In this document: positions 1 to 12,240 of the stretch, piece by piece | How positions within the stretch are numbered: position 1 is the first letter of the stretch | Layout of the letters: each line of letters opens with the position of its first letter | DNA from: Escherichia coli | Lineage (GTDB): Bacteria > Pseudomonadota > Gammaproteobacteria > Enterobacterales > Enterobacteriaceae | Direction: 5' to 3' (one strand) | Assembly (NCBI RefSeq): GCF_003334765.1 | Contig: NZ_QOWT01000013.1 | DNA: 64,000 nucleotides | Program-made: the position numbers and the translations under genes | The notes under the pieces: generated by a model | Told to the model about the DNA's origin: nothing | Seen by the model: the letters and a program-made list of their open reading frames with translations, nothing else | Database searches by the model: none

Positions 1-235
1 ATGACTCATGATGAACCCTGTTCCATGGCTCCAGATGACAAACATGATCTCATATCAGGGACTTGTTCGCACCTTCCTTAACAATCTTATATTTCCCTCT
101 GCGCGCCTTTCCTACCCGCAGTATATAGTGCAAGCGGTATGAGGAAAGGGAGATTTCACAAGGATGTTATACTCAAAGTAGACAATCCTGATCTCAAGCG
201 TACGTATTGTCCATGCGATGAATAAAGGAAAAGTT

Positions 236-541
236 ATGAAACACAAGCTTTCTGCAATCCTTATGGCCTTCATGTTGACGACGCCAGCTGCGTTTGCTGC
301 CCCTGAAGCAACAAACGGGACCGAGGCAACGACGGGTACTACTGGCACCACAACGACCACTACCGGCGCAACCACGACTGCTACTACCACTGGTGGCGTG
401 GCTGCTGGCGCTGTCGGCACGGCGACAGTTGTCGGTGTGGCAACGGCTGTTGGTGTGGCGACGTTGGCAGTTGTTGCAGCAAATGACAGTGGCGATGGCG
501 GTTCTCATAACACCTCAACCACCACGTCCACTACACGCTAA
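236..541 (+). CDS. gfcA: GfcA (YmcD), small Thr-rich protein; first gene of the gfc group-4-capsule operon
   Basis: ORF-track frame 218..541 trimmed to ATG at 236 (AAGGA about 6 nt upstream); 101 aa with N-terminal hydrophobic signal-like segment and a T/G/A low-complexity tract; recognised as E. coli GfcA. Confidence 0.85.
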   Translation: MKHKLSAILMAFMLTTPAAFAAPEATNGTEATTGTTGTTTTTTGATTTATTTGGVAAGAVGTATVVGVATAVGVATLAVVAANDSGDGGSHNTSTTTSTTR

Positions 542-647
542 TACCGCTTTAACGCGTCGAAATTAAAGTTAAATGATACCCGGTTGCGATATTCGTACCG
601 GGCTTTAGAGATTTGCATTTTTTTAATTAACCTTTCAAGGATTAAAG

Positions 648-1292
648 GTGCGCCCTCTTATTTTATCGATTTTCGCACTATTTCTTGCGGGATGTACGCA
701 CAGCCAGCAAAGTATGGTCGATACATTTCGCGCCAGCCTTTTCGATAATCAGGATATCACCGTAGCGGATCAGCAGATCCAGGCGTTGCCTTATTCCACT
801 ATGTATTTACGCCTTAATGAAGGGCAACGAATCTTTGTGGTACTGGGATATATAGAACAAGAACAAAGCAAATGGTTATCCCAGGATAACGCCATGCTGG
901 TTACCCACAATGGACGTCTTTTAAAAACCGTCAAACTTAATAATAATCTGCTGGAAGTGACAAATTCCGGGCAGGACCCTCTGCGTAACGCGCTGGCAAT
1001 AAAAGATGGCAGCCGCTGGACGCGCGATATTCTCTGGAGTGAAGACAACCATTTTCGCTCTGCGACCCTGAGTTCTACTTTTTCCTTTGCTGGATTAGAG
1101 ACGCTGAATATTGCGGGTCGCAATGTGCTGTGTAATGTCTGGCAGGAAGAGGTGACTTCCACGCGGCCAGAAAAACAGTGGCAAAACACATTCTGGGTCG
1201 ATTCGGCTACTGGCCAGGTTCGTCAAAGTCGGCAAATGTTAGGCGCAGGGGTTATTCCCGTAGAAATGACGTTTCTTAAACCCGCACCATGA
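648..1292 (+). CDS. gfcB: GfcB (YmcC) lipoprotein
   Basis: ORF track 648..1292, 214 aa, GTG start; signal peptide ending in LAGC lipobox; recognised as GfcB. Confidence 0.85.
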   Translation: MRPLILSIFALFLAGCTHSQQSMVDTFRASLFDNQDITVADQQIQALPYSTMYLRLNEGQRIFVVLGYIEQEQSKWLSQDNAMLVTHNGRLLKTVKLNNNLLEVTNSGQDPLRNALAIKDGSRWTRDILWSEDNHFRSATLSSTFSFAGLETLNIAGRNVLCNVWQEEVTSTRPEKQWQNTFWVDSATGQVRQSRQMLGAGVIPVEMTFLKPAP

Positions 1293-2035
1293 ATAAATTA
1301 CAGTCGTATTTCATTGCCAGCGTACTTTACGTAATGACACCCCATGCCTTTGCGCAAGGAACGGTGACTATTTATCTGCCTGGCGAACAACAGACACTTT
1401 CCGTTGGCCCCGTGGAAAATGTTGTCCAGTTGGTGACACAACCGCAACTGCGCGATCGCCTCTGGTGGCCTGGTGCCTTGCTGACCGACTCTGCGGCGAA
1501 AGCTAAAGCGCTTAAAGACTACCAACATGTCATGGCACAGCTTGCTTCCTGGGAAGCAGAAGCTGACGACGATGTGGCGGCAACGATTAAATCCGTGCGC
1601 CAGCAGTTACTCAATCTCAATATCACTGGTCGCTTACCGGTCAAACTGGACCCTGATTTTGTACGAGTGGATGAGAACAGCAATCCCCCGTTGGTCGGGG
1701 ACTATACGCTCTATACCGTACAGCGTCCGGTGACTATTACTCTGCTGGGTGCGGTTTCTGGGGCCGGGCAATTGCCCTGGCAGGCAGGCCGTAGCGTTAC
1801 CGATTATCTGCAAGATCACCCCCGCCTTGCAGGCGCGGACAAGAATAACGTTATGGTGATTACGCCTGAGGGTGAGACTGTCGTCGCCCCTGTTGCCCTG
1901 TGGAATAAAAGACATGTGGAACCACCGCCTGGCAGCCAGCTTTGGTTGGGCTTTTCTGCGCATGTACTGCCCGAAAAATATGCTGATTTAAATGACCAGA
2001 TTGTGTCTGTTTTAACGCAACGTGTTCCTGACTGA
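1289..2035 (+). CDS. gfcC: GfcC (YmcB) periplasmic capsule-assembly protein
   Basis: ORF track 1289..2035, 248 aa; ATG overlaps gfcB stop (ATGA); cleavable signal peptide; recognised as GfcC. Confidence 0.85.
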
Positions 2036-4131
2036 TGAAGAAGAATTCTTATCTTTTAAGCTGCCTGGCCATTGCCGTCTCCAGTGCCTGTCATGCTGAA
2101 GTATTAACCTACCCGGATCCGCTGGGTTCGTCGCAATCAGACTTTGGCGGCACAGGATTGTTGCAGATGCCAAATGCGCGCATCGCACCGGAAGGTGAAT
2201 TCAGCGTCAACTACCGGGATAACGATCAATACCGGTTCTACTCCACCTCCGTGGCGCTGTTCCCATGGCTGGAAGGCACCATTCGTTATACGGATGTGCG
2301 CACACGCAAATATAGCCAGTGGGAAGATTTCAGCGGCGATCAGTCATACAAAGACAAATCATTCGATTTTAAACTTCGCCTGTGGGAAGAAGGTTACTGG
2401 CTACCGCAAGTGGCGTTTGGTAAACGTGATATTGCTGGTACGGGTCTGTTTGACGGTGAGTATCTGGTGGCCAGCAAGCAAGCGGGGCCATTTGATTTCA
2501 CCCTCGGGATGGCATGGGGCTACGCCGGTAATGCGGGCAATATTACCAACCCGTTTTGCCGGGTGAGCGATAAATATTGTCATCGCGCAGAGTCTCACGA
2601 TGCGGGCGATATCAGCTTTAGCGATATCTTTCGTGGCCCGGCTTCCATCTTTGGCGGCATTGAGTATCAAACGCCGTGGAATCCCCTGCGTCTGAAACTC
2701 GAATACGATGGAAACAATTACCAGAATGATTTCGCTGGCAAACTGCCTCAGGCAAGCCATTTCAACGTCGGCGCAGTTTATCGCGCTGCCAGCTGGGCAG
2801 ATCTCAACCTGAGTTATGAACGCGGTAACACGTTGATGTTTGGCTTCACGTTACGGACCAATTTCAACGATCTGCGCCCTGCCCTGCGCGATACGCCAAA
2901 ACCGGCATATCAACCTGCGCCTGAATCTGAAGGATTGCAGTACACCACGGTAGCAAACCAACTTACCGCCCTGAAGTATAACGCGGGCTTTGACGCGCCA
3001 GAAATTCAGCTACGCGATAAGACACTGTATATGTCTGGTCAGCAATACAAATACCGTGACTCTCGTGAAGCGGTCGATCGTGCCAACCGGATTCTGGTGA
3101 ATAACCTGCCGCAAGGCGTTGAGAAGATTAGCGTGACGCAAAAGCGCGAGCATATGGCGATGGTGACTACCGAAACCGACGTAGCCAGCCTGCGCAAACA
3201 GCTGGCAGGTACAGCGCCTGGTCAATCAGAGCCACTGCAACAACAACGTGTTGAAGCTGAAGATCTTTCTGCCTTTGGTCGGGGCTACCGTATTCGTGAA
3301 GATCGCTTTAGCTACTCTTTCAACCCAACACTTTCACAGTCGCTGGGCGGCCCGGAAGATTTCTATATGTTCCAGCTGGGGCTGATGTCCAGTGCCCGCT
3401 ACTGGTTTACCGACCACCTGCTGCTTGATGGCGGTATTTTCACCAATATTTACAACAACTACGACAAGTTTAAGTCTTCGCTGTTGCCCGCGGACTCTAC
3501 CCTGCCCCGCGTGCGCACGCATATCCGTGACTACGTTCGCAATGACGTTTATCTCAACAACTTGCAGGCGAACTATTTTGCTGACTTAGGCAATGGTTTC
3601 TATGGCCAGGTGTATGGCGGTTATCTGGAAACGATGTACGCCGGTGTCGGTTCCGAGCTGCTTTATCGCCCGCTAGATGCCTGCTGGGCGCTGGGTGTGG
3701 ACGTTAACTACGTGAAGCAACGTGACTGGGACAACATGATGCGTTTCACCGATTATTCCACGCCAACAGGTTTCGTGACGGCTTACTGGAACCCGCCGAC
3801 GCTCAATGGCGTACTGATGAAACTTAGCGTTGGGCAATATCTGGCAAAAGATAAAGGCGCAACGATCGACGTCGCCAAACGCTTTGACAGCGGCGTGGCG
3901 GTAGGGGTATGGGCGGCAATCAGTAACGTATCTAAAGATGACTACGGCGAAGGCGGCTTTAGTAAAGGTTTTTATATCTCGATTCCATTCGACTTGATGA
4001 CCATTGGACCTAACCGCAACCGCGCGGTGGTTTCGTGGACACCATTGACGCGTGATGGTGGACAAATGCTGTCACGCAAATACCAGCTCTATCCAATGAC
4101 GGCAGAGCGAGAAGTACCGGTTGGACAATAA
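2035..4131 (+). CDS. gfcD: GfcD (YmcA) outer-membrane protein
   Basis: ORF track 2035..4131, 698 aa; ATG overlaps gfcC stop (TGATG); signal peptide; recognised as GfcD. Confidence 0.85.
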
Positions 4132-4176
4132 CCTGACGTAATTCATAACATTACATTGACTGATAAATATAAACCA

Positions 4177-5316
4177 ATGAAAAAGAACATTTTTAAGTTT
4201 TCGGTACTGACATTGGCTGTTCTGTCTTTGACAGCATGTACCCTTGTTCCTGGTCAGAATTTATCGACCAGTAACAAGGATGTCATTGAACTACCTGACA
4301 ATCAGTATGACCTGGACAAAATGGTCAATATCTATCCCGTCACGCCAGGATTGATTGATCAGTTGCGCGCCAAACCGATTATGTCGCAGGCTAACCCGGA
4401 GCTGGAGCAGCAAATCGCAAACTATGAATATCGTATCGGGATTGGTGATGTGTTGATGGTTACGGTCTGGGATCACCCGGAACTAACCACCCCCGCAGGG
4501 CAATACCGTAGCGCCAGTGATACCGGCAACTGGGTTAACGCCGATGGTGCGATTTTCTACCCCTATATTGGTCGCCTGAAAGTGGCCGGGAAAACACTTA
4601 CCCAGGTACGCAACGAGATTACAGCGCGTCTCGATTCAGTCATTGAAAGCCCGCAAGTCGATGTCAGCGTCGCGGCGTTCCGATCGCAAAAAGCGTACGT
4701 CACCGGCGAAGTCAGCAAATCGGGTCAGCAGCCGATTACCAATATTCCTCTGACCATCATGGATGCGATTAACGCCGCGGGCGGTCTGACCGCAGATGCA
4801 GACTGGCGCAACGTGGTGCTCACCCAGAATGGCGTAAAGACCAAAGTGAACCTCTATGCGCTGATGCAGCGTGGCGACTTGCGCCAGAACAAACTGCTGC
4901 ACCCGGGCGATATTTTATTTATTCCGCGCAACGATGATCTGAAAGTCTTCGTGATGGGTGAAGTGGGTAAACAGAGCACGCTGAAAATGGACCGCAGCGG
5001 TATGACCCTGGCGGAAGCGCTGGGTAACGCTGAGGGTATGAATCAGGATGTCGCTGATGCGACGGGGATTTTTGTTATTCGTGCAACGCAAAACAAGCAG
5101 AATGGCAAAATCGCCAATATTTATCAGCTGAATGCGAAGGACGCATCGGCAATGATACTCGGAACGGAATTCCAGCTTGAACCTTACGACATTGTTTATG
5201 TCACTACCGCGCCGCTGGCTCGTTGGAACCGTGTGATTTCTCTGCTGGTACCGACGATTTCCGGGGTGCATGACCTGACAGAGACTTCACGGTGGATTCA
5301 AACATGGCCCAACTAA
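4177..5316 (+). CDS. gfcE: GfcE (YccZ), Wza-family outer-membrane polysaccharide export lipoprotein
   Basis: ORF-track frame 4156..5316 trimmed to ATG 4177 (379 aa); lipoprotein signal (LTAC); Wza-like sequence. Confidence 0.85.
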
Positions 5317-5750
5317 AATTTAACTCAATCCTGGTGGTTTGTACCGGCAACATTTGCCGTTCGCCCATTGGCGAGCGCTTGCTGCGTAAACGTCTGCCGG
5401 GCGTAAAAGTCAAATCGGCAGGTGTTCATGGTCTGGTAAAACACCCTGCAGATGCGACAGCGGCAGATGTTGCCGCTAATCATGGCGTATCTCTTGAAGG
5501 ACATGCCGGACGTAAGCTCACTGCTGAGATGGCACGAAATTACGATCTGATTCTGGCAATGGAGTCGGAACATATTGCTCAGGTTACCGCAATTGCTCCC
5601 GAGGTCCGCGGGAAGACAATGCTGTTTGGGCAATGGCTGGAACAGAAAGAGATCCCGGATCCCTATCGTAAAAGTCAGGACGCATTTGAACATGTCTACG
5701 GTATGTTGGAGCGCGCCAGTCAGGAATGGGCGAAGCGCCTCAGCCGGTAA
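5304..5750 (+). CDS. etp: Etp (YccY) low-molecular-weight protein-tyrosine phosphatase
   Basis: ORF-track frame 5292..5750 trimmed to ATG 5304 (148 aa); CTGNICRS P-loop motif of LMW-PTPs; overlaps gfcE 3' end by 13 nt. Confidence 0.9.
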
Positions 5751-5769
5751 TTTGAGTTTATAAAATACG

Positions 5770-7950
5770 ATGACAACTAAAAATATGAATACGCCACCAG
5801 GCAGCACTCAGGAAAATGAGATCGATCTGCTTCGTCTGGTCGGCGAGTTATGGGATCACCGTAAGTTTATTATCAGCGTGACCGCGTTATTCACGCTGAT
5901 CGCTGTCGCTTACTCGCTGTTAAGCACACCAATTTATCAGGCAGATACTCTGGTCCAGGTTGAGCAAAAACAGGGCAACGCCATTCTCAGCGGCCTGAGC
6001 GATATGATCCCTAACTCATCGCCCGAGTCTGCACCGGAGATCCAACTGCTGCAATCGCGCATGATTCTCGGTAAAACCATTGCTGAACTGAATCTGCGCG
6101 ACATAGTTGAGCAGAAGTATTTTCCGATTGTGGGTCGCGGCTGGGCGAGATTAACCAAAGAAAAACCAGGTGAGCTGGCGATCAGCTGGATGCATATTCC
6201 ACAACTGAATGGTCAGGATCAGCAACTGACACTCACGGTTGGGGAAAACGGCCACTATACACTGGAAGGTGAAGAGTTCACCGTCAATGGTATGGTCGGC
6301 CAGCGTCTGGAAAAAGATGGCGTTGCGCTGACTATCGCGGACATTAAGGCCAAACCAGGAACACAGTTTGTCCTGAGCCAGCGTACCGAACTGGAAGCGA
6401 TTAACGCATTGCAGGAAACCTTTACCGTTAGCGAACGCAGTAAAGAAAGCGGGATGCTGGAACTTACCATGACTGGTGATGATCCCCAGTTGATTACTCG
6501 TATTCTGAACAGCATCGCTAACAACTATTTGCAACAGAATATCGCTCGCCAGGCGGCGCAGGATTCACAAAGCCTTGAATTCTTACAGCGCCAGTTACCT
6601 GAAGTGCGCAGCGAGCGGGACCAAGCGGAAGAAAAACTCAACGTTTATCGCCAGCAGCGCGATTCGGTTGACCTTAACCTGGAAGCCAAAGCCGTTCTTG
6701 AGCAGATTGTGAACGTTGATAATCAACTCAATGAGCTGACCTTCCGCGAGGCAGAGATCTCCCAGCTGTATAAGAAAGATCACCCAACTTATCGTGCGCT
6801 GCTGGAAAAACGCCAGACGCTGGAGCAAGAACGCAAACGCCTGAATAAGCGGGTATCGGCAATGCCTTCCACCCAACAGGAAGTGTTGCGTTTAAGTCGT
6901 GACGTAGAAGCGGGCCGTGCGGTATATCTGCAATTACTTAACCGCCAGCAGGAGTTGAGTATTTCGAAATCCAGTGCCATTGGTAACGTGCGGATTATCG
7001 ACCCGGCAGTCACTCAGCCGCAGCCAGTGAAACCGAAAAAAGCGTTGAACGTGGTGCTTGGTTTTATTCTTGGCCTGTTTATTTCTGTGGGTGCCGTGCT
7101 GGCGCGTGCGATGTTGCGTCGTGGTGTAGAAGCCCCGGAACAACTGGAAGAGCACGGCATCAGCGTTTATGCCACTATCCCAATGTCCGAGTGGCTGGAT
7201 AAACGCACCCGTCTGCGTAAGAAAAATTTATTTTCTAATCAGCAGCGCCATCGTACTAAAAATATCCCCTTCCTGGCGGTGGATAACCCGGCGGATTCTG
7301 CTGTGGAAGCCGTACGTGCGCTACGAACCAGTCTGCATTTCGCTATGATGGAGACGGAGAATAACATTCTAATGATCACCGGTGCGACGCCAGACAGTGG
7401 TAAAACGTTTGTCAGTTCAACTCTGGCAGCGGTGATCGCCCAGTCCGATCAAAAAGTGTTATTTATTGATGCCGACTTACGCCGTGGTTATTCGCATAAC
7501 CTGTTTACCGTGAGTAATGAACATGGCTTGTCGGAATATCTGGCAGGTAAAGATGAGCTCAACAAAGTGATCCAGCATTTTGGCAAAGGAGGCTTTGATG
7601 TGATTACTCGCGGTCAGGTGCCACCTAACCCGTCTGAACTGCTGATGCGCGATCGGATGCGTCAATTACTGGAATGGGCGAACGACCATTACGATCTGGT
7701 GATTGTCGATACGCCGCCGATGCTGGCGGTGAGTGATGCCGCGGTCGTGGGGCGTTCTGTTGGCACCAGCCTGCTGGTTGCGCGTTTTGGCTTGAACACC
7801 GCCAAAGAGGTGAGTTTGTCAATGCAGCGTCTGGAACAGGCAGGCGTCAATATTAAAGGCGCTATCCTCAATGGTGTGATTAAACGCGCCAGCACCGCTT
7901 ACAGTTACGGCTATAACTATTACGGTTATAGTTACTCCGAGAAAGAGTAA
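5770..7950 (+). CDS. etk: Etk (YccC) Wzc-family BY-kinase (tyrosine autokinase)
   Basis: ORF track 5770..7950, 726 aa; Walker A (GATPDSGKT), C-terminal tyrosine cluster YSYGYNYYGYSY. Confidence 0.9.
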   Translation: MTTKNMNTPPGSTQENEIDLLRLVGELWDHRKFIISVTALFTLIAVAYSLLSTPIYQADTLVQVEQKQGNAILSGLSDMIPNSSPESAPEIQLLQSRMILGKTIAELNLRDIVEQKYFPIVGRGWARLTKEKPGELAISWMHIPQLNGQDQQLTLTVGENGHYTLEGEEFTVNGMVGQRLEKDGVALTIADIKAKPGTQFVLSQRTELEAINALQETFTVSERSKESGMLELTMTGDDPQLITRILNSIANNYLQQNIARQAAQDSQSLEFLQRQLPEVRSERDQAEEKLNVYRQQRDSVDLNLEAKAVLEQIVNVDNQLNELTFREAEISQLYKKDHPTYRALLEKRQTLEQERKRLNKRVSAMPSTQQEVLRLSRDVEAGRAVYLQLLNRQQELSISKSSAIGNVRIIDPAVTQPQPVKPKKALNVVLGFILGLFISVGAVLARAMLRRGVEAPEQLEEHGISVYATIPMSEWLDKRTRLRKKNLFSNQQRHRTKNIPFLAVDNPADSAVEAVRALRTSLHFAMMETENNILMITGATPDSGKTFVSSTLAAVIAQSDQKVLFIDADLRRGYSHNLFTVSNEHGLSEYLAGKDELNKVIQHFGKGGFDVITRGQVPPNPSELLMRDRMRQLLEWANDHYDLVIVDTPPMLAVSDAAVVGRSVGTSLLVARFGLNTAKEVSLSMQRLEQAGVNIKGAILNGVIKRASTAYSYGYNYYGYSYSEKE

Positions 7951-7960
7951 AACTGAAAGT

Positions 7961-7996
7961 GGCCGGATGCGGCGTGAACGCCTTTTCCGGTCTACG
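7961..7996. repeat. REP (repetitive extragenic palindromic) element
   Basis: GGCCGGATGCGGCGTGAACGCCTTTTCCGGTCTACG between convergent etk and appA; matches the E. coli REP consensus. Confidence 0.7.
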
Positions 7997-8028
7997 CATT
8001 AGACAGTTCTTCGTTTGTCATCAGCCTC

Positions 8029-8059
8029 AGAGCATTCAGGTAACTGAATGCTCTTTTTT
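8029..8059 (+). terminator. Rho-independent terminator downstream of etk
   Basis: AGAGCATTCAG-GTAA-CTGAATGCTCT perfect hairpin followed by TTTTTT. Confidence 0.65.
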
Positions 8060-8064
8060 ATGCA

Positions 8065-9363
8065 TTACAAACTGCACGCCGGTATGCGTGCTTCATTCAC
8101 GATTTGCGTAAAACCTGCCAACGAACACATGCCCTGCGCATTTCGCTCTTCACATCCTGCCAGGGTCAGTTTCACCTCTCCGGGCGGCGTATTTAATGAC
8201 AGCGGCGTTTTATCACGCATCTGCTGTAAAGTCTGGAAGACCAGCGAAACCTGAATCCACTGGCTGTTATCGCTTAGCCGACGCCAGCGTTCAAACACCA
8301 GTTCACCACCTGGCGGCGTGTTATCCGGCTGACCGGGAAGCGTCCAGTTGAGCTCCAGTGCGCCGCCGAGATTTGCCAGATTAGTATCGTGTCCGGCGAT
8401 AAACAGCACTGAAGTGGGTAATGTCACACCATACGCCTGTTTTTGCGGTGGATGGGGCGTCAACGCTGTCTTGATCAAATCTAATAACGGGGTGGCGCGG
8501 CTGCGGGCAACCTCTGGCGTGCGTTGTAGCAAATAAAATTGCGCGTTATGCAAACTTAGCAAGGTGTTCCACTGGTGTGAATCGGTGATCCTTCCCCACC
8601 CCGGCTCCGGCATTCCCTGTGCTTGTTGCAGGAGAAATATCTCCGTCAGCATTGATGCGAGGCTTACCGCACCGGTTAATGAGACATTGTCGGCGCTCAC
8701 CTTGAGTTCCGATGGTAATGCCTGCGTTAATGAACAGCTTTCGTCCTGTTTCTCACGTTTAAGGCACAAGTTTGATTGCGGAAAATTAAGCACCCGTTCC
8801 AGTTCGCGAAACGCCGTTTGCCGATGCCCGGTAAAGTCAGCAATTGACCCTCCTGCCCTGCTGAGGATCGCGTCAGTCACGTTCGCGTTATCCAGTTGGC
8901 AAACGCCAGTTTTTAGAGGATTAAATAACGGATCGGGACTGGACGTATCTGCCTGGGTATGTACGGTTATTGCACAGTCAGGTGCCAGCCCGGCGGCGAA
9001 GGCTTCGCCTGTTTTACGGGTACGCTCGTCGACATCAGCAATAATCGCGACCTGACCAGACTGCGGGCAGCCCTTTTTCGCCAGCAATCCGTCGGCTACC
9101 AGACGCTGGCGTTGGTAATGTCCGAGATAGGCGATTAGCTCACCACCGCGCGGTGTCAGCCAACCCAGTTTTACCGGCCAGGTTGGCCATGCGTCTGGGG
9201 TGACATCCTGCATCAGTTGCGTGGCCTTGGTTGGAGCACGCACACCATGACGACTGACAATCACCACACTTTCCAGCTTCAGCTCCGGCTCACTCTGAGC
9301 GAATGCAGATTGCGGGGTTAACGGAATCAGAAGAGATAAAAATGGGATTAAGATCGCTTTCAT
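8065..9363 (-). CDS. appA: AppA periplasmic phytase / pH 2.5 acid phosphatase
   Basis: ORF-track frame 8065..9393 trimmed to Met-11 (432 aa); signal peptide, RHGVRAP histidine-acid-phosphatase motif. Confidence 0.9.
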   Translation of the reverse strand: MKAILIPFLSLLIPLTPQSAFAQSEPELKLESVVIVSRHGVRAPTKATQLMQDVTPDAWPTWPVKLGWLTPRGGELIAYLGHYQRQRLVADGLLAKKGCPQSGQVAIIADVDERTRKTGEAFAAGLAPDCAITVHTQADTSSPDPLFNPLKTGVCQLDNANVTDAILSRAGGSIADFTGHRQTAFRELERVLNFPQSNLCLKREKQDESCSLTQALPSELKVSADNVSLTGAVSLASMLTEIFLLQQAQGMPEPGWGRITDSHQWNTLLSLHNAQFYLLQRTPEVARSRATPLLDLIKTALTPHPPQKQAYGVTLPTSVLFIAGHDTNLANLGGALELNWTLPGQPDNTPPGGELVFERWRRLSDNSQWIQVSLVFQTLQQMRDKTPLSLNTPPGEVKLTLAGCEERNAQGMCSLAGFTQIVNEARIPACSL

Positions 9364-9442
9364 CGATATGTTTCCGCTTTTCATATCTGACATTATTGAT
9401 TGCCTGATGCGATGCTAATGCGCCGCATCAGGCCTACGTTCG

Positions 9443-9535
9443 TTAACTTTTCAGACGCGGGTCCAGCCATACCAACACAAGGGTGGAGAGCGAACACATC
9501 AACAAAATGCCGACGAACCAAAGTAAATACCACAT
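9443..9535 (-). CDS. appX: AppX (CbdX/YccB) 30-aa membrane subunit of cytochrome bd-II
   Basis: Not in ORF track (below size cut-off); hand translation of minus strand 9535 to 9443 gives MWYLLWFVGILLMCSLSTLVLVWLDPRLKS then TAA; sits 12 nt downstream of appB stop. Confidence 0.75.
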   Translation of the reverse strand: MWYLLWFVGILLMCSLSTLVLVWLDPRLKS

Positions 9536-10695: not shown

Positions 10696-12240
10696 TTACC
10701 CCTGTTGCTGCGTCGGTTGTTCACTCTGCATCGCGCTCGGCCCCAGACGGGCATATTTCTGCATCAGGTAGACTTCGGCGATTAAGAACAGGGTGTAAAG
10801 CCCTACGATCATGATCAGTGAGAAAGCCAGTTGTCCTGTGGTTAAAGCGGAGTGCGCGGAGTATGTCGGTAAGATGTCCTGTATCGCCCACGGCTGACGA
10901 CCAAACTCGGTCATAAACCACCCGGCTTCAATCGCAATCCACGGCAACGGCAAACTCCAGAGCGCCATTTTCAGCACCCAGCGATGCTGGTCGATTTTGC
11001 CACGCAGCGTCTGGACAAGCGCAATCAGCATCACCAGTAGCAGCAGGGAACCACAGCCCACCATGATGCGGAAACTCCAGAATACCGGCGCAACCTGAGG
11101 TATCGCGCCACGCATCGCCGCCTGGTACTGTGCGGCTGTGACATGATTCATATCCGGCGCATAGCGGGAGAGCAACATGCCGTAGCCCAGGTCACCTTCC
11201 AGTCCCCGGAATGCCTGCAACACATGCGGCTCACGATTGCCTTGCGATATTTCCTGCATTAACAGCCAGGCCATACGTCCGCGTTGCAAGCGTGGGTAGG
11301 TTTCAGCCATCAAATTCTTCAGACCCGGCACGGGTTTATCTAATGAGTGAGTGGCGAGGATCCCTAGCAGCGCGGGAATTTTGAGGGCAAAGGCGTTACG
11401 CTCTTGATCCTGTTCCGGCCAGGCAACCACATGGAACGGTGCAGGTGCAGGTTCCGTTTGCCACTCCCCTTCCATCGCCGCCAGTTTTACCGGTTGTACT
11501 TGCGCGACTTCATACGCAGAACTGTCTCCGAGTTGCAGGGTACCGATAATCGCCAGAGTACCGAAGACGGAACCGATGGCAAACGAGCGTAATGCGACAT
11601 CGCGCTCCCGTCCGCGCAGTAAATACCAGGCGCTGATCGCCATAATAAACATGGCCCCGGTCACGTAGCCCGCCATTACGGTGTGCACAAATTTCACCTG
11701 GCTGACCGGATTAAAGACCAGCTCGCTGAAGCTGGTCATCTCCATACGCAGGGTGTCGATATCAAAATGCGCACCGGTCGGGTATTGCATCCAACCGTTG
11801 GCATTCAATATCCACAACGCAGAGAGATTTGAACCGAACGCCACCAGCCACGTCACCAGCAGGTGCTGGTATTTATTCAGCCGTTGCCAGCCGAAGAAGA
11901 ACAGCCCGACAAAGGTGGATTCGAGGAAGAAGGCCATTAATGCTTCCATCGCCAGCGGTGCGCCAAAAATATCGCCCACATAGTTGGAATAGAATGACCA
12001 GTTAGTACCAAACTGAAACTCCATGGTCAGGCCGGTAGCCACGCCAAGAGCAAAATTGATACCGAAGAGCTTACCCCAGAAGCGCGTCATATCGCGGTAG
12101 ATTGTTTTGCCGGTGACCACGTAAATGGTTTCCATAATAGCCAGCAAAAAAATCAGCCCCAGGGTAAGGGGTACAAATAAAAAGTGATACAGCGCGGTCA
12201 GAGCAAACTGCCAGCGCGATAAATCAATGACATCCCACAT
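10696..12240 (-). CDS. appC: AppC (CbdA) cytochrome bd-II oxidase subunit I
   Basis: ORF-track frame 10696..12246 trimmed to Met-3 (514 aa) with AGGAG upstream; recognised as AppC. Confidence 0.9.

Follow-up and report, generated by a model that had tools for sequence, protein, structure and literature searches.

The window, by which we mean the whole 64-kb stretch of E. coli DNA that was analysed, holds near its start gfcABCDE-etp-etk, the already well-known group 4 capsule export operon of E. coli, which on sequence grounds is complete and K-12-like. Seven co-oriented genes lie on the plus strand in the order gfcA-gfcB-gfcC-gfcD-gfcE-etp-etk, as expected of the group 4 capsule (gfc/ymc) operon, and their names were taken from the RefSeq annotation of identical DNA in strain H3. 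The features of the operon and its 3' side are as follows.

236-541, plus strand: gfcA, 101 aa, threonine-rich inner membrane protein, annotated in the identical DNA of strain H3 as WP_001295358.1
648-1292, plus strand: gfcB, 214 aa, lipoprotein with a GTG start
1289-2035, plus strand: gfcC, 248 aa, overlapping gfcB by 4 nt (ATGA)
2035-4131, plus strand: gfcD, 698 aa, YjbH-domain outer membrane protein, overlapping gfcC by 1 nt (TGATG)
4177-5316, plus strand: gfcE, 379 aa, Wza-like outer membrane polysaccharide export (OPX) lipoprotein (NCBIfam NF011658, 703 bits, cutoff 333)
5304-5750, plus strand: etp, 148 aa, low-molecular-weight phosphotyrosine phosphatase (NCBIfam NF008486 equivalog, 334 bits, cutoff 247), overlapping gfcE by 13 nt
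5770-7950, plus strand: etk, 726 aa, BY-kinase (NCBIfam NF007350 equivalog, 1592 bits, cutoff 1248)
8029-8062, plus strand: terminator-like hairpin in the gap separating etk from the convergent appA, with an 11-bp stem and a T run after it

All seven lengths equal those of the MG1655 counterparts, and GfcA, GfcB, GfcC, GfcD, GfcE and Etp are 100% identical to the MG1655 proteins, leaving Etk alone to differ, by one residue. An earlier note made from this DNA had called the locus complete, with seven full-length open reading frames, and this holds; the three overlaps it described (gfcB/gfcC, gfcC/gfcD and gfcE/etp) are exact to the nucleotide. Its description of the genes as tightly packed suits those three of the six junctions, but not the other three, where spacers of 106 nt (gfcA-gfcB), 45 nt (gfcD-gfcE) and 19 nt (etp-etk) intervene. 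The gfcA-gfcB spacer folds no better than shuffled sequence (z = -0.78). The last three genes encode the OPX lipoprotein, the phosphatase and the BY-kinase, all above the curated NCBIfam cutoffs, and Etk aligns over its whole length with the Wzc structures. The operon transcript likely ends at the hairpin at 8029-8062, beyond which appA (8065-9393) converges on the 3' side of the operon; the cspH side of the locus is taken by an IS5 at the window edge.

The one residue that sets Etk apart is a private substitution, L283R (CTG to CGG, base 6617), which is the sole difference from strain H3 across window positions 78-28888. For the 61-mer around base 6617, none of the 2,623 matching genomes was 100% identical. 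The residue aligned with Etk 283 in Wzc K30 (7NHR) is a leucine.

Upstream of gfcA, the following features were located.

1-77, minus strand: terminal 77 bp of IS5, the end with the ins5A (insH) transposase promoter, matching reference IS5 at 77/77 positions
66-93, plus strand: promoter-like site across the junction, TTCGCA-16 nt-TATATT, with TTCGCA in the IS5 repeat and TATATT in native DNA, pointing to gfcA
78-81, no strand: TTAA, an IS5 target tetranucleotide (Py-T-A-Pu), at which identity to native DNA begins
78-235, plus strand: 158 bp of retained native gfcA upstream DNA, 100% identical to many phylogroup A genomes
165-173, plus strand: extended -10 element TGTTATACT of the proximal gfcA promoter, with its start A at window 180 and a 56-nt leader
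203-211, no strand: the 9-bp site that is duplicated around the K-12 IS1D, uninterrupted here

Positions 1-77 match, at 77 of 77 bases, the terminal stretch of the 1195-bp IS5 annotated in strain C21 (L001 2501-2577). The 16-bp IS5 inverted repeat GGAAGGTGCGAACAAG lies on the minus strand at 62-77, the single match in the window to an inverted-repeat search, and the start codon (ATG) of ins5A lies on the complement of 7-9, 68 bp from the IS5 tip, with the gene continuing past the window start. Terminal repeat, terminal sequence and ins5A start position are thus all those of IS5. Window bases 10-77 are the 68-bp 'PIS' region, defined as the 68-bp 5' end of IS5 (PMC11894529). ISKpn26 is ruled out as the identity of the element, as the ISKpn26 end of strain PK6 finds no match within 8 substitutions. 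The transposase-promoter end faces gfcA, the transposase gene reads away from the operon, and 158 bp separate the junction from the gfcA start codon. On the gfc-sense strand, IS5 showed no strong intrinsic terminator, so read-through from distal promoters may occur.

In uninterrupted native DNA the sequence runs ...GGGGGATAG-TTAA-CAATC... (L003 2492-2509), and IS5 has been documented at TTAA in bgl and flhDC (PMC5493358); the TTAA at 78-81 would presumably represent one of the two copies of the 4-bp target duplication. The window shows 77 bp of IS5, the other 1118 bp and the second TTAA copy lying beyond its start. We infer that the element is complete and simply inserted, with cspH beyond; a simple insertion would place the 1195-bp IS5, then TTAA and ...CCAGAGGGGGATAG, in native orientation, upstream of window position 1. 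Among 5,426 complete E. coli genomes, none carries the junction (100-bp junction query, 0 spanning matches), and its exact 40-mer gave 0 matches in each of the metagenome_contigs and genome_contigs collections. Apart from this end, the 64-kb window follows MG1655 collinearly.

These features bear on the IS1 insertion that lies in the gfc promoter region of K-12, as the earlier note stated and as both the literature (PMC2516531) and the MG1655 annotation agree. In MG1655, IS1D occupies 1049778-1050545 and the gfcA ATG is at 1049744, so that the IS1D end is 33 bp from the ATG. No IS1 terminal repeat is present in positions 1-8000 on either strand at up to 4 mismatches, in accord with the earlier report of none near gfcA. 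In a BLAST comparison with MG1655, the window splits at IS1D: positions 78-211 align on its upstream side and positions 203-64000 on its downstream side, the two alignments sharing 9 bp. Because 203-211 is continuous and IS1D is only 33 bp from the ATG, the window itself excludes the K-12 'silent' arrangement, an IS1 33 bp upstream of the gfcA ATG within a 9-bp duplication. The absence of IS1D and the 15 substitutions in 64 kb also rule out K-12 as the strain. The earlier view that the upstream IS1 and promoter status could not be judged from the window is therefore overturned: the intact 203-211 decides against the K-12 form, and, with an IS5 end joined to native DNA at TTAA, the window itself shows an interrupted upstream region. 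The 235 bp counted upstream of gfcA are right in length, but the first 77 are the IS5 end, which had been overlooked. Likewise, the either/or test proposed there, by which an IS1 end would mean a silent operon and its absence an expressible one, does not cover the IS5 allele actually present.

Promoter positions were taken from published maps. Cappable-seq in EDL933 places gfcA transcription start sites (TSSs) 2, 30, 56, 82, 99, 128, 178 and 191 nt upstream of the ATG (PMC10469882 Table S5), and these distances were transferred to the window through the EDL933 locus (L018). The main gTSS in EDL933 is -178 in five of eight growth conditions (RRS 222-387), -128 in two, both stationary-phase, and -56 in one (PMC10469882 Tables S5 and S7); the -56 start is detected in all eight conditions, with a score of only 35 where it is the main start (PMC10469882). 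The window equivalents are 108 (-128), 137 (-99), 154 (-82), 180 (-56), 206 (-30) and 234 (-2). The -178 and -191 starts fall on the far side of the IS5 junction, -178 by 20 nt. EDL933 TSS 1316403, the -56 start, maps 7 nt downstream of TGTTATACT, an element unchanged across six diverged strains; being present in all EDL933 conditions, this start could suffice for expression. The -128 start keeps its initiation site while its -35 zone is replaced by the IS5 tip; it has no recognisable -10 at the usual distance, and promoter assignments around it are uncertain.

Between EDL933, the source of the TSS map, and phylogroup A, the spacer is 94.4% identical. In MG1655, a TSS was shown 958 nt upstream of gfcA; subtracting the 777 nt of IS1D and its target duplication gives 181, which indicates that this distal promoter is also active in a phylogroup A background. 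Variation among six diverged strains touches 1 of 100 columns in the ATG-proximal 100 bp and 39 of 260 in the distal spacer. A consensus promoter scan of the native spacer found nothing, functional promoters being visible only through published TSS data. The K-12 RpoD SELEX table holds only a K-12-specific predicted promoter adjoining IS1 (PMC3946193), and the EPEC complementation primer gfcA5 was rejected as a promoter locator, as the whole spacer served there as 'promoter' and gives no location. The junction site at 66-93 matches consensus at 9 of 12 positions, with about 0.7 such sites expected by chance per 700 bp, and from its motifs might, purely as a hypothesis, be a promoter made by the insertion.

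We consider it probable, at roughly 60%, that IS5 at the TTAA 158 bp upstream splits an otherwise intact K-12-like operon, free of IS1D, from its main promoters, so that transcription is reduced and re-wired. With the -178 start 20 nt beyond the junction, IS5 would interrupt the leader some 20 nt past the main start and cut the main promoter off from gfcA by 1.2 kb of untranslated IS DNA. The proximal promoter (TGTTATACT, start at window 180) would stay intact, and a reduced, re-wired operon transcription would be the most likely result. The anatomy, the junction and the absence of IS1 were observed directly; we infer that the promoters mapped in EDL933 and MG1655 also operate in this strain and that IS5 is polar.

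The K-12 MG1655 gfc (ymc) locus is the closest comparison. It has the same seven genes in the same order, six identical proteins and the same appA side, and shares 63.8 kb of common sequence with the window at 15 substitutions and 1 indel. In both, an insertion sequence lies between the distal promoters and gfcA; in K-12 this is IS1D (768 bp) 33 bp from the ATG, whereas here it is IS5 (1195 bp) 158 bp from the ATG, with the -56 promoter kept. In K-12, every mapped start is upstream of IS1D except the -2 start and the minor -30 start, the latter being part of the duplicated target. The effect predicted here is accordingly milder than in K-12, whose IS1D at -33 follows the four strongest starts (-56, -128, -178 and -191). 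Among complete genomes, 466 have the K-12 IS1D junction and none has the IS5 junction of the window. The functional operons of EPEC E2348/69 and EHEC EDL933 share architecture and protein families with the window, and in EDL933 the 100 bp adjacent to the ATG, with TGTTATACT and the -56 start, are identical to it. In both strains, however, the cspH-gfcA spacer is uninterrupted, -178 and -191 are attached and gfcA is strongly expressed, whereas the spacer in the window is interrupted by IS5.

It is unlikely that the IS5 is neutral, with the proximal promoter, the -128 start and read-through across IS5 together giving essentially normal operon expression. The ubiquity of the -56 start in EDL933, the rank of -128 in stationary phase, the strong conservation of the ATG-proximal 100 bp relative to the rest of the spacer and the lack of a strong intrinsic terminator on the relevant IS5 strand all fit such neutrality; however, -178 is the main start in most EDL933 conditions, with scores far above the 35 of -56, a 1.2-kb untranslated insert would be expected to be polar through Rho, and IS5 DNA replaces the -35 zone of the -128 start. 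That IS5 instead activates the operon, by breaking a silencing AT-rich region as in bgl or through the junction site at 66-93, we regard as very improbable. IS5 activates bgl whatever its position or orientation and de-represses or remodels other promoters (PMC2753651, PMC11894529), the displaced distal spacer is 68% AT compared with 59% in the retained part, and the activated glpFK, fucAO, flhDC and bgl resemble the window in that IS5 occupies a Py-T-A-Pu site within an AT-rich regulatory spacer that precedes an operon. In glpFK, fucAO and flhDC, however, the ins5A promoter is distal and IS5 lies upstream of the activated promoter, whereas here the ins5A promoter is proximal and the insertion is downstream of the main start. 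This leaves the bent IB region at a distance of about 1.1 kb and directs the transposase promoter away from gfcA, so the activating arrangement of those operons (a distal ins5A promoter, with a 3' bent IB region or transposase read-through facing the target) is absent, and only orientation-independent bgl-type activation is conceivable. Further, the native operon is not cryptic, gfcA being strongly transcribed in EDL933 and EPEC (PMC3853201), and the 9/12 match of the junction site is no better than chance.

The main reading assumes a simple insertion, and it is improbable that the IS5 end marks instead the edge of a larger IS5-mediated deletion or inversion, with DNA other than the cspH side beyond it. 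The window ends 77 bp into IS5 with the other junction outside it, IS-mediated deletion is known at this locus from strain PSS-13, in which IS1B is joined to the 3' end of etk, and the absence of the junction from the 5,426 genomes and both contig collections leaves no second copy for comparison. Against this, the junction falls exactly at Py-T-A-Pu with native sequence from the first base, as for a fresh transposition, the remaining 64 kb is collinear with MG1655 (15 substitutions, 1 indel), and simple insertions are far commoner.

The cspH-gfcA spacer, 441 bp long, carries at least five other independent IS insertions in other strains. Besides the K-12 IS1D, these include the following.

Strain PK6: ISKpn26 (IS5 family), in the same orientation as the IS5 of the window, at CTAA, 205 bp from the ATG
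Strain 254D-1: IS1, 202 bp from the gfcA ATG
Strain 61: IS1, 55 bp from the gfcA ATG
Strain GDSC2BY4G: IS1A, 27 bp from the gfcA ATG

Each differs from the allele in the window in element, site or both, and none has its junction. In each of the six independent spacer IS alleles, whose distances from the ATG are 27, 33, 55, 158, 202 and 205 bp, the element either splits the distal promoters or lies 3' of them. E. coli B and C have lost the -10 of the main gfcA promoter through a 23-bp deletion; counts of this BL21-type deletion are unreliable, since undeleted genomes can be joined from two pieces and then appear 100% identical. A broader reading, which we find unlikely, is that the IS5 in the gfcA leader and the non-conservative Etk change L283R are both adaptive changes acting on capsule export in this lineage. 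They would then belong to a recurring, convergent trend, among commensal and laboratory lineages of phylogroup A, of turning down or re-wiring the group 4 capsule promoter, with the IS5 tip supplying a new -35 that reshapes promoter use. The lesions cited for such convergence are IS1D in K-12, the 23-bp deletion in E. coli B and C, and IS1 or ISKpn26 in several isolates.

The operon and its silencing by an IS in K-12 are textbook knowledge, and the locus itself is ordinary and no news; the allele is new, of a known promoter-lesion type. What is added here is that the allele is not that of K-12, that the IS5 allele is absent from 5,426 complete genomes, and that the junction, read with published TSS maps, predicts a main promoter cut off and a proximal promoter retained. 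Production of O-antigen capsule requires O-antigen synthesis genes as well as expression of the operon, and the rfb, wzy and waaL genes lie outside the 64-kb window. If the strain makes O antigen, this allele would be a natural 'promoter-swap' mutant for gauging the level of gfc transcription required for group 4 capsule. That the 441-bp spacer has suffered several independent IS and deletion lesions suggests repeated loss or tuning of capsule expression in phylogroup A lineages.

The DNA carries seven full-length reading frames on the + strand (ORF listing, window 1-9500), and these are a real, complete and already well known operon, gfcABCDE-etp-etk, for group 4 capsule export. The names of GfcA-D rest on the RefSeq annotation of strain H3, whose DNA equals window 78-28888 but for one base, while GfcE, Etp and Etk score far over the curated NCBIfam cutoffs.

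Genes of the operon and the downstream hairpin (window coordinates)
236-541, + strand, gfcA (ORF listing; name from H3)
648-1292, + strand, gfcB (GTG start; name from H3)
1289-2035, + strand, gfcC (ORF listing; name from H3)
2035-4131, + strand, gfcD (ORF listing; name from H3)
4177-5316, + strand, gfcE, Wza-like exporter
5304-5750, + strand, etp, Etp phosphatase equivalog
5770-7950, + strand, etk, Etk kinase equivalog
8029-8062, terminator-like hairpin and T run between etk and convergent appA

All seven translations match the lengths annotated for MG1655, and six of the seven are identical to it in sequence, with Etk showing a single residue change (L283R). The earlier note had identified the locus rightly as the known operon with complete genes, and each overlap it gave holds to the nucleotide: ATGA (4 nt), TGATG (1 nt) and 13 nt. 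At the remaining three junctions the genes lie 106, 45 and 19 nt apart. The first of these spacers, between gfcA and gfcB, holds a GC-rich hairpin (CCCGGU...ACCGGG, 579-625) with a U7 run some bases 3', which could be an attenuator yielding surplus gfcA transcript; the whole spacer folds no better than shuffled sequence (z = -0.78). A REP-like palindrome, GCCGGATGCGGCGTGAACGCCTTTTCCGGTCTACG, lies at 7963-7997, past the etk stop codon and ahead of the terminator-like hairpin.

Upstream of gfcA, bases 1-77 read ...GGGACTTGTTCGCACCTTCC and are identical at 77/77 positions to the terminus of a 1195-bp IS5 annotated in strain C21. The 16-mer IS5 terminal repeat GGAAGGTGCGAACAAG has a single match across the window (minus strand, 62-77). 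The start codon of the transposase gene ins5A (insH) is the complement of 7-9, 68 bp from the IS5 tip, in accord with the published length of the IS5 transposase-promoter region, 68 bp (PMC11894529). The related ISKpn26 was rejected as the element at 1-77, being more than 8 substitutions apart. The match to native E. coli DNA starts at base 78, and the uninterrupted sequence there is ...GGGGGATAG-TTAA-CAATC..., so IS5 abuts TTAA, a tetranucleotide that obeys the Py-T-A-Pu target rule; IS5 insertions at TTAA are on record for bgl and flhDC (PMC5493358). Between the tip and the gfcA ATG are 158 bp, and the transposase gene is directed away from the operon. A simple insertion would place the full 1195-bp IS5, TTAA, ...TTTCCAGAGGGGGATAG and cspH beyond the window start. 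That this end is instead the edge of a larger rearrangement is improbable, and such an edge would be compatible with the same effect on the operon. Upstream of the IS5 transposase promoter, which is normally silent, there is now gfcA regulatory DNA (10-77 with 78-180, minus strand); at fucAO, host DNA flanking this promoter activates it, and by analogy the gfc region might affect transposase expression in this strain.

No IS1 terminal repeat was found in window 1-8000 with up to four mismatches, in agreement with the earlier note, which saw none in the 235 bp upstream of gfcA and held that upstream IS status could not be judged from this DNA. On that point it was mistaken: the DNA rules out IS1 and shows IS5 inside the leader. 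MG1655 has IS1D at 1049778-1050545 and its gfcA ATG at 1049744, placing IS1 just 33 bp upstream of gfcA. When aligned by BLAST to 66.6 kb of MG1655, the window splits into two pieces (78-211 and 203-64000) that flank IS1D and share its 9-bp target duplication; the IS1D site is therefore within the window and intact. Across 63.8 kb, only 15 substitutions and one indel separate the window from MG1655. The strain is a close phylogroup A relative of K-12; K-12 itself was rejected as its identity on these differences and the uninterrupted IS1D site.

A simple consensus promoter scan of the native spacer found nothing, and promoter positions were taken from published Cappable-seq of EHEC EDL933 (PMC10469882, Tables S5 and S7), with EDL933 coordinates mapped base by base onto the window.

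EDL933 transcription start sites (nt upstream of the gfcA ATG; PMC10469882)
-2, window 234, 2/8 conditions
-30, window 206, 5/8 conditions
-56, window 180, 8/8 conditions; "main gTSS" in 1, score 35
-82, window 154, 3/8 conditions
-99, window 137, 2/8 conditions
-128, window 108, 7/8 conditions; main gTSS in 2
-178, beyond the IS5 junction, 6/8 conditions; main gTSS in 5, scores 222-387
-191, beyond the IS5 junction, 5/8 conditions

The -56 start is an A at window 180, seven nt past an extended -10, TGTTATACT (165-173), and the -178 start would fall 20 nt upstream of the IS5 junction. For MG1655, gfcA starts are listed at 90 and 958 nt (PMC10469882). Subtracting 777 nt (IS1D and its duplication) from 958 gives 181, which indicates that the distal promoter fires in the K-12 background too. 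The 90-nt start lies 57 nt inside IS1D (10746-10835 of comparison locus L004) and points to transcription running out of the IS1 end into gfcA in K-12. Across six aligned diverged strains, the 100 bp adjacent to the ATG vary at 1/100 columns and the distal spacer at 39/260 (Fisher p = 2e-5), with 0-5 differences in the first 122 nt of gfcA.

On this map, IS5 lies inside the leader of both distal starts, the main one included, and does not precede the promoter region. RNA begun at -178 or -191 would need to traverse an untranslated 1.2-kb stretch of IS DNA that runs antisense to ins5A. No strong intrinsic terminator was found on the gfc-sense strand of IS5, so any polarity would depend on Rho, and Rho-dependent polarity across IS5 is the step we propose. 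At the -128 start, the IS5 tip stands in place of the -35 zone; the -56 promoter is untouched, and a promoter-like site at the junction (TTCGCA-16-TATATT, 66-93; consensus scan) is no better than chance expectation. An insertion neutral for operon expression seems unlikely. Activation of the operon by IS5 is very improbable: the ins5A promoter end is the one proximal to gfcA, so bent-DNA/IHF and fusion-promoter mechanisms do not apply, and the native operon is not cryptic. Our best reading, with a probability of roughly 0.6, is that operon transcription is reduced and re-wired, an effect that would be milder than in K-12, where IS1D sits downstream of the four strongest starts.

The sole difference from strain H3 across 78-28888 is G instead of T at base 6617 (etk codon 283, CTG to CGG), making L283R a private, non-conservative substitution; among 2,623 genomes matching the surrounding 61-mer, none is identical. 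The aligned residue in Wzc K30 structures is Leu, in a periplasmic helical region. One private substitution in 28.8 kb landing in the 7.7-kb operon is not statistically remarkable. Elsewhere, an A run in the ompF leader (about 62972, 26 nt upstream of the start codon) has lost one base (A7 vs A8 in MG1655), and substitutions relative to both MG1655 and H3 occur at 28889 (sulA-sxy spacer, 47 bp upstream of sxy) and 34771 (pqiC).

The IS5 junction occurs in 0/5,426 complete E. coli genomes and is absent from both large contig collections searched; 466 genomes, mostly laboratory derivatives, share the K-12 IS1D junction. The -219 to +42 region is present in 3,623 genomes, and in 3,156 of them a single piece covers 80% of it or more. 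Sampling genomes with an interrupted region revealed at least five further independent IS events hitting the 441-bp cspH-gfcA spacer (comparison loci L002, L006, L015, L016 and L017), which looks like a recurrent IS target.

Independent IS events (distance from the gfcA ATG)
IS1A, 27 bp, strain GDSC2BY4G
IS1, 55 bp, strain 61
IS1, 202 bp, strain 254D-1
ISKpn26, at CTAA, 205 bp, oriented as the window's IS5, strain PK6
IS1B, with deletion of gfcA through most of etk, strain PSS-13

In E. coli B derivatives (BL21, REL606) and in strain C, 23 bp of the spacer are deleted (native -202 to -180; about 357 in the BL21(DE3) locus L011; columns 258-280 of the spacer alignment A1), and with them go the start mapped at -191 and the presumed -10 element of the main promoter, that of the -178 start. 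This adds a second promoter lesion in laboratory lineages, one that involves no IS. The window's IS5 allele joins this known class of lesions at the gfcA promoter; in an operon already known, what is new is an insertion allele without earlier record that carries a testable predicted effect.
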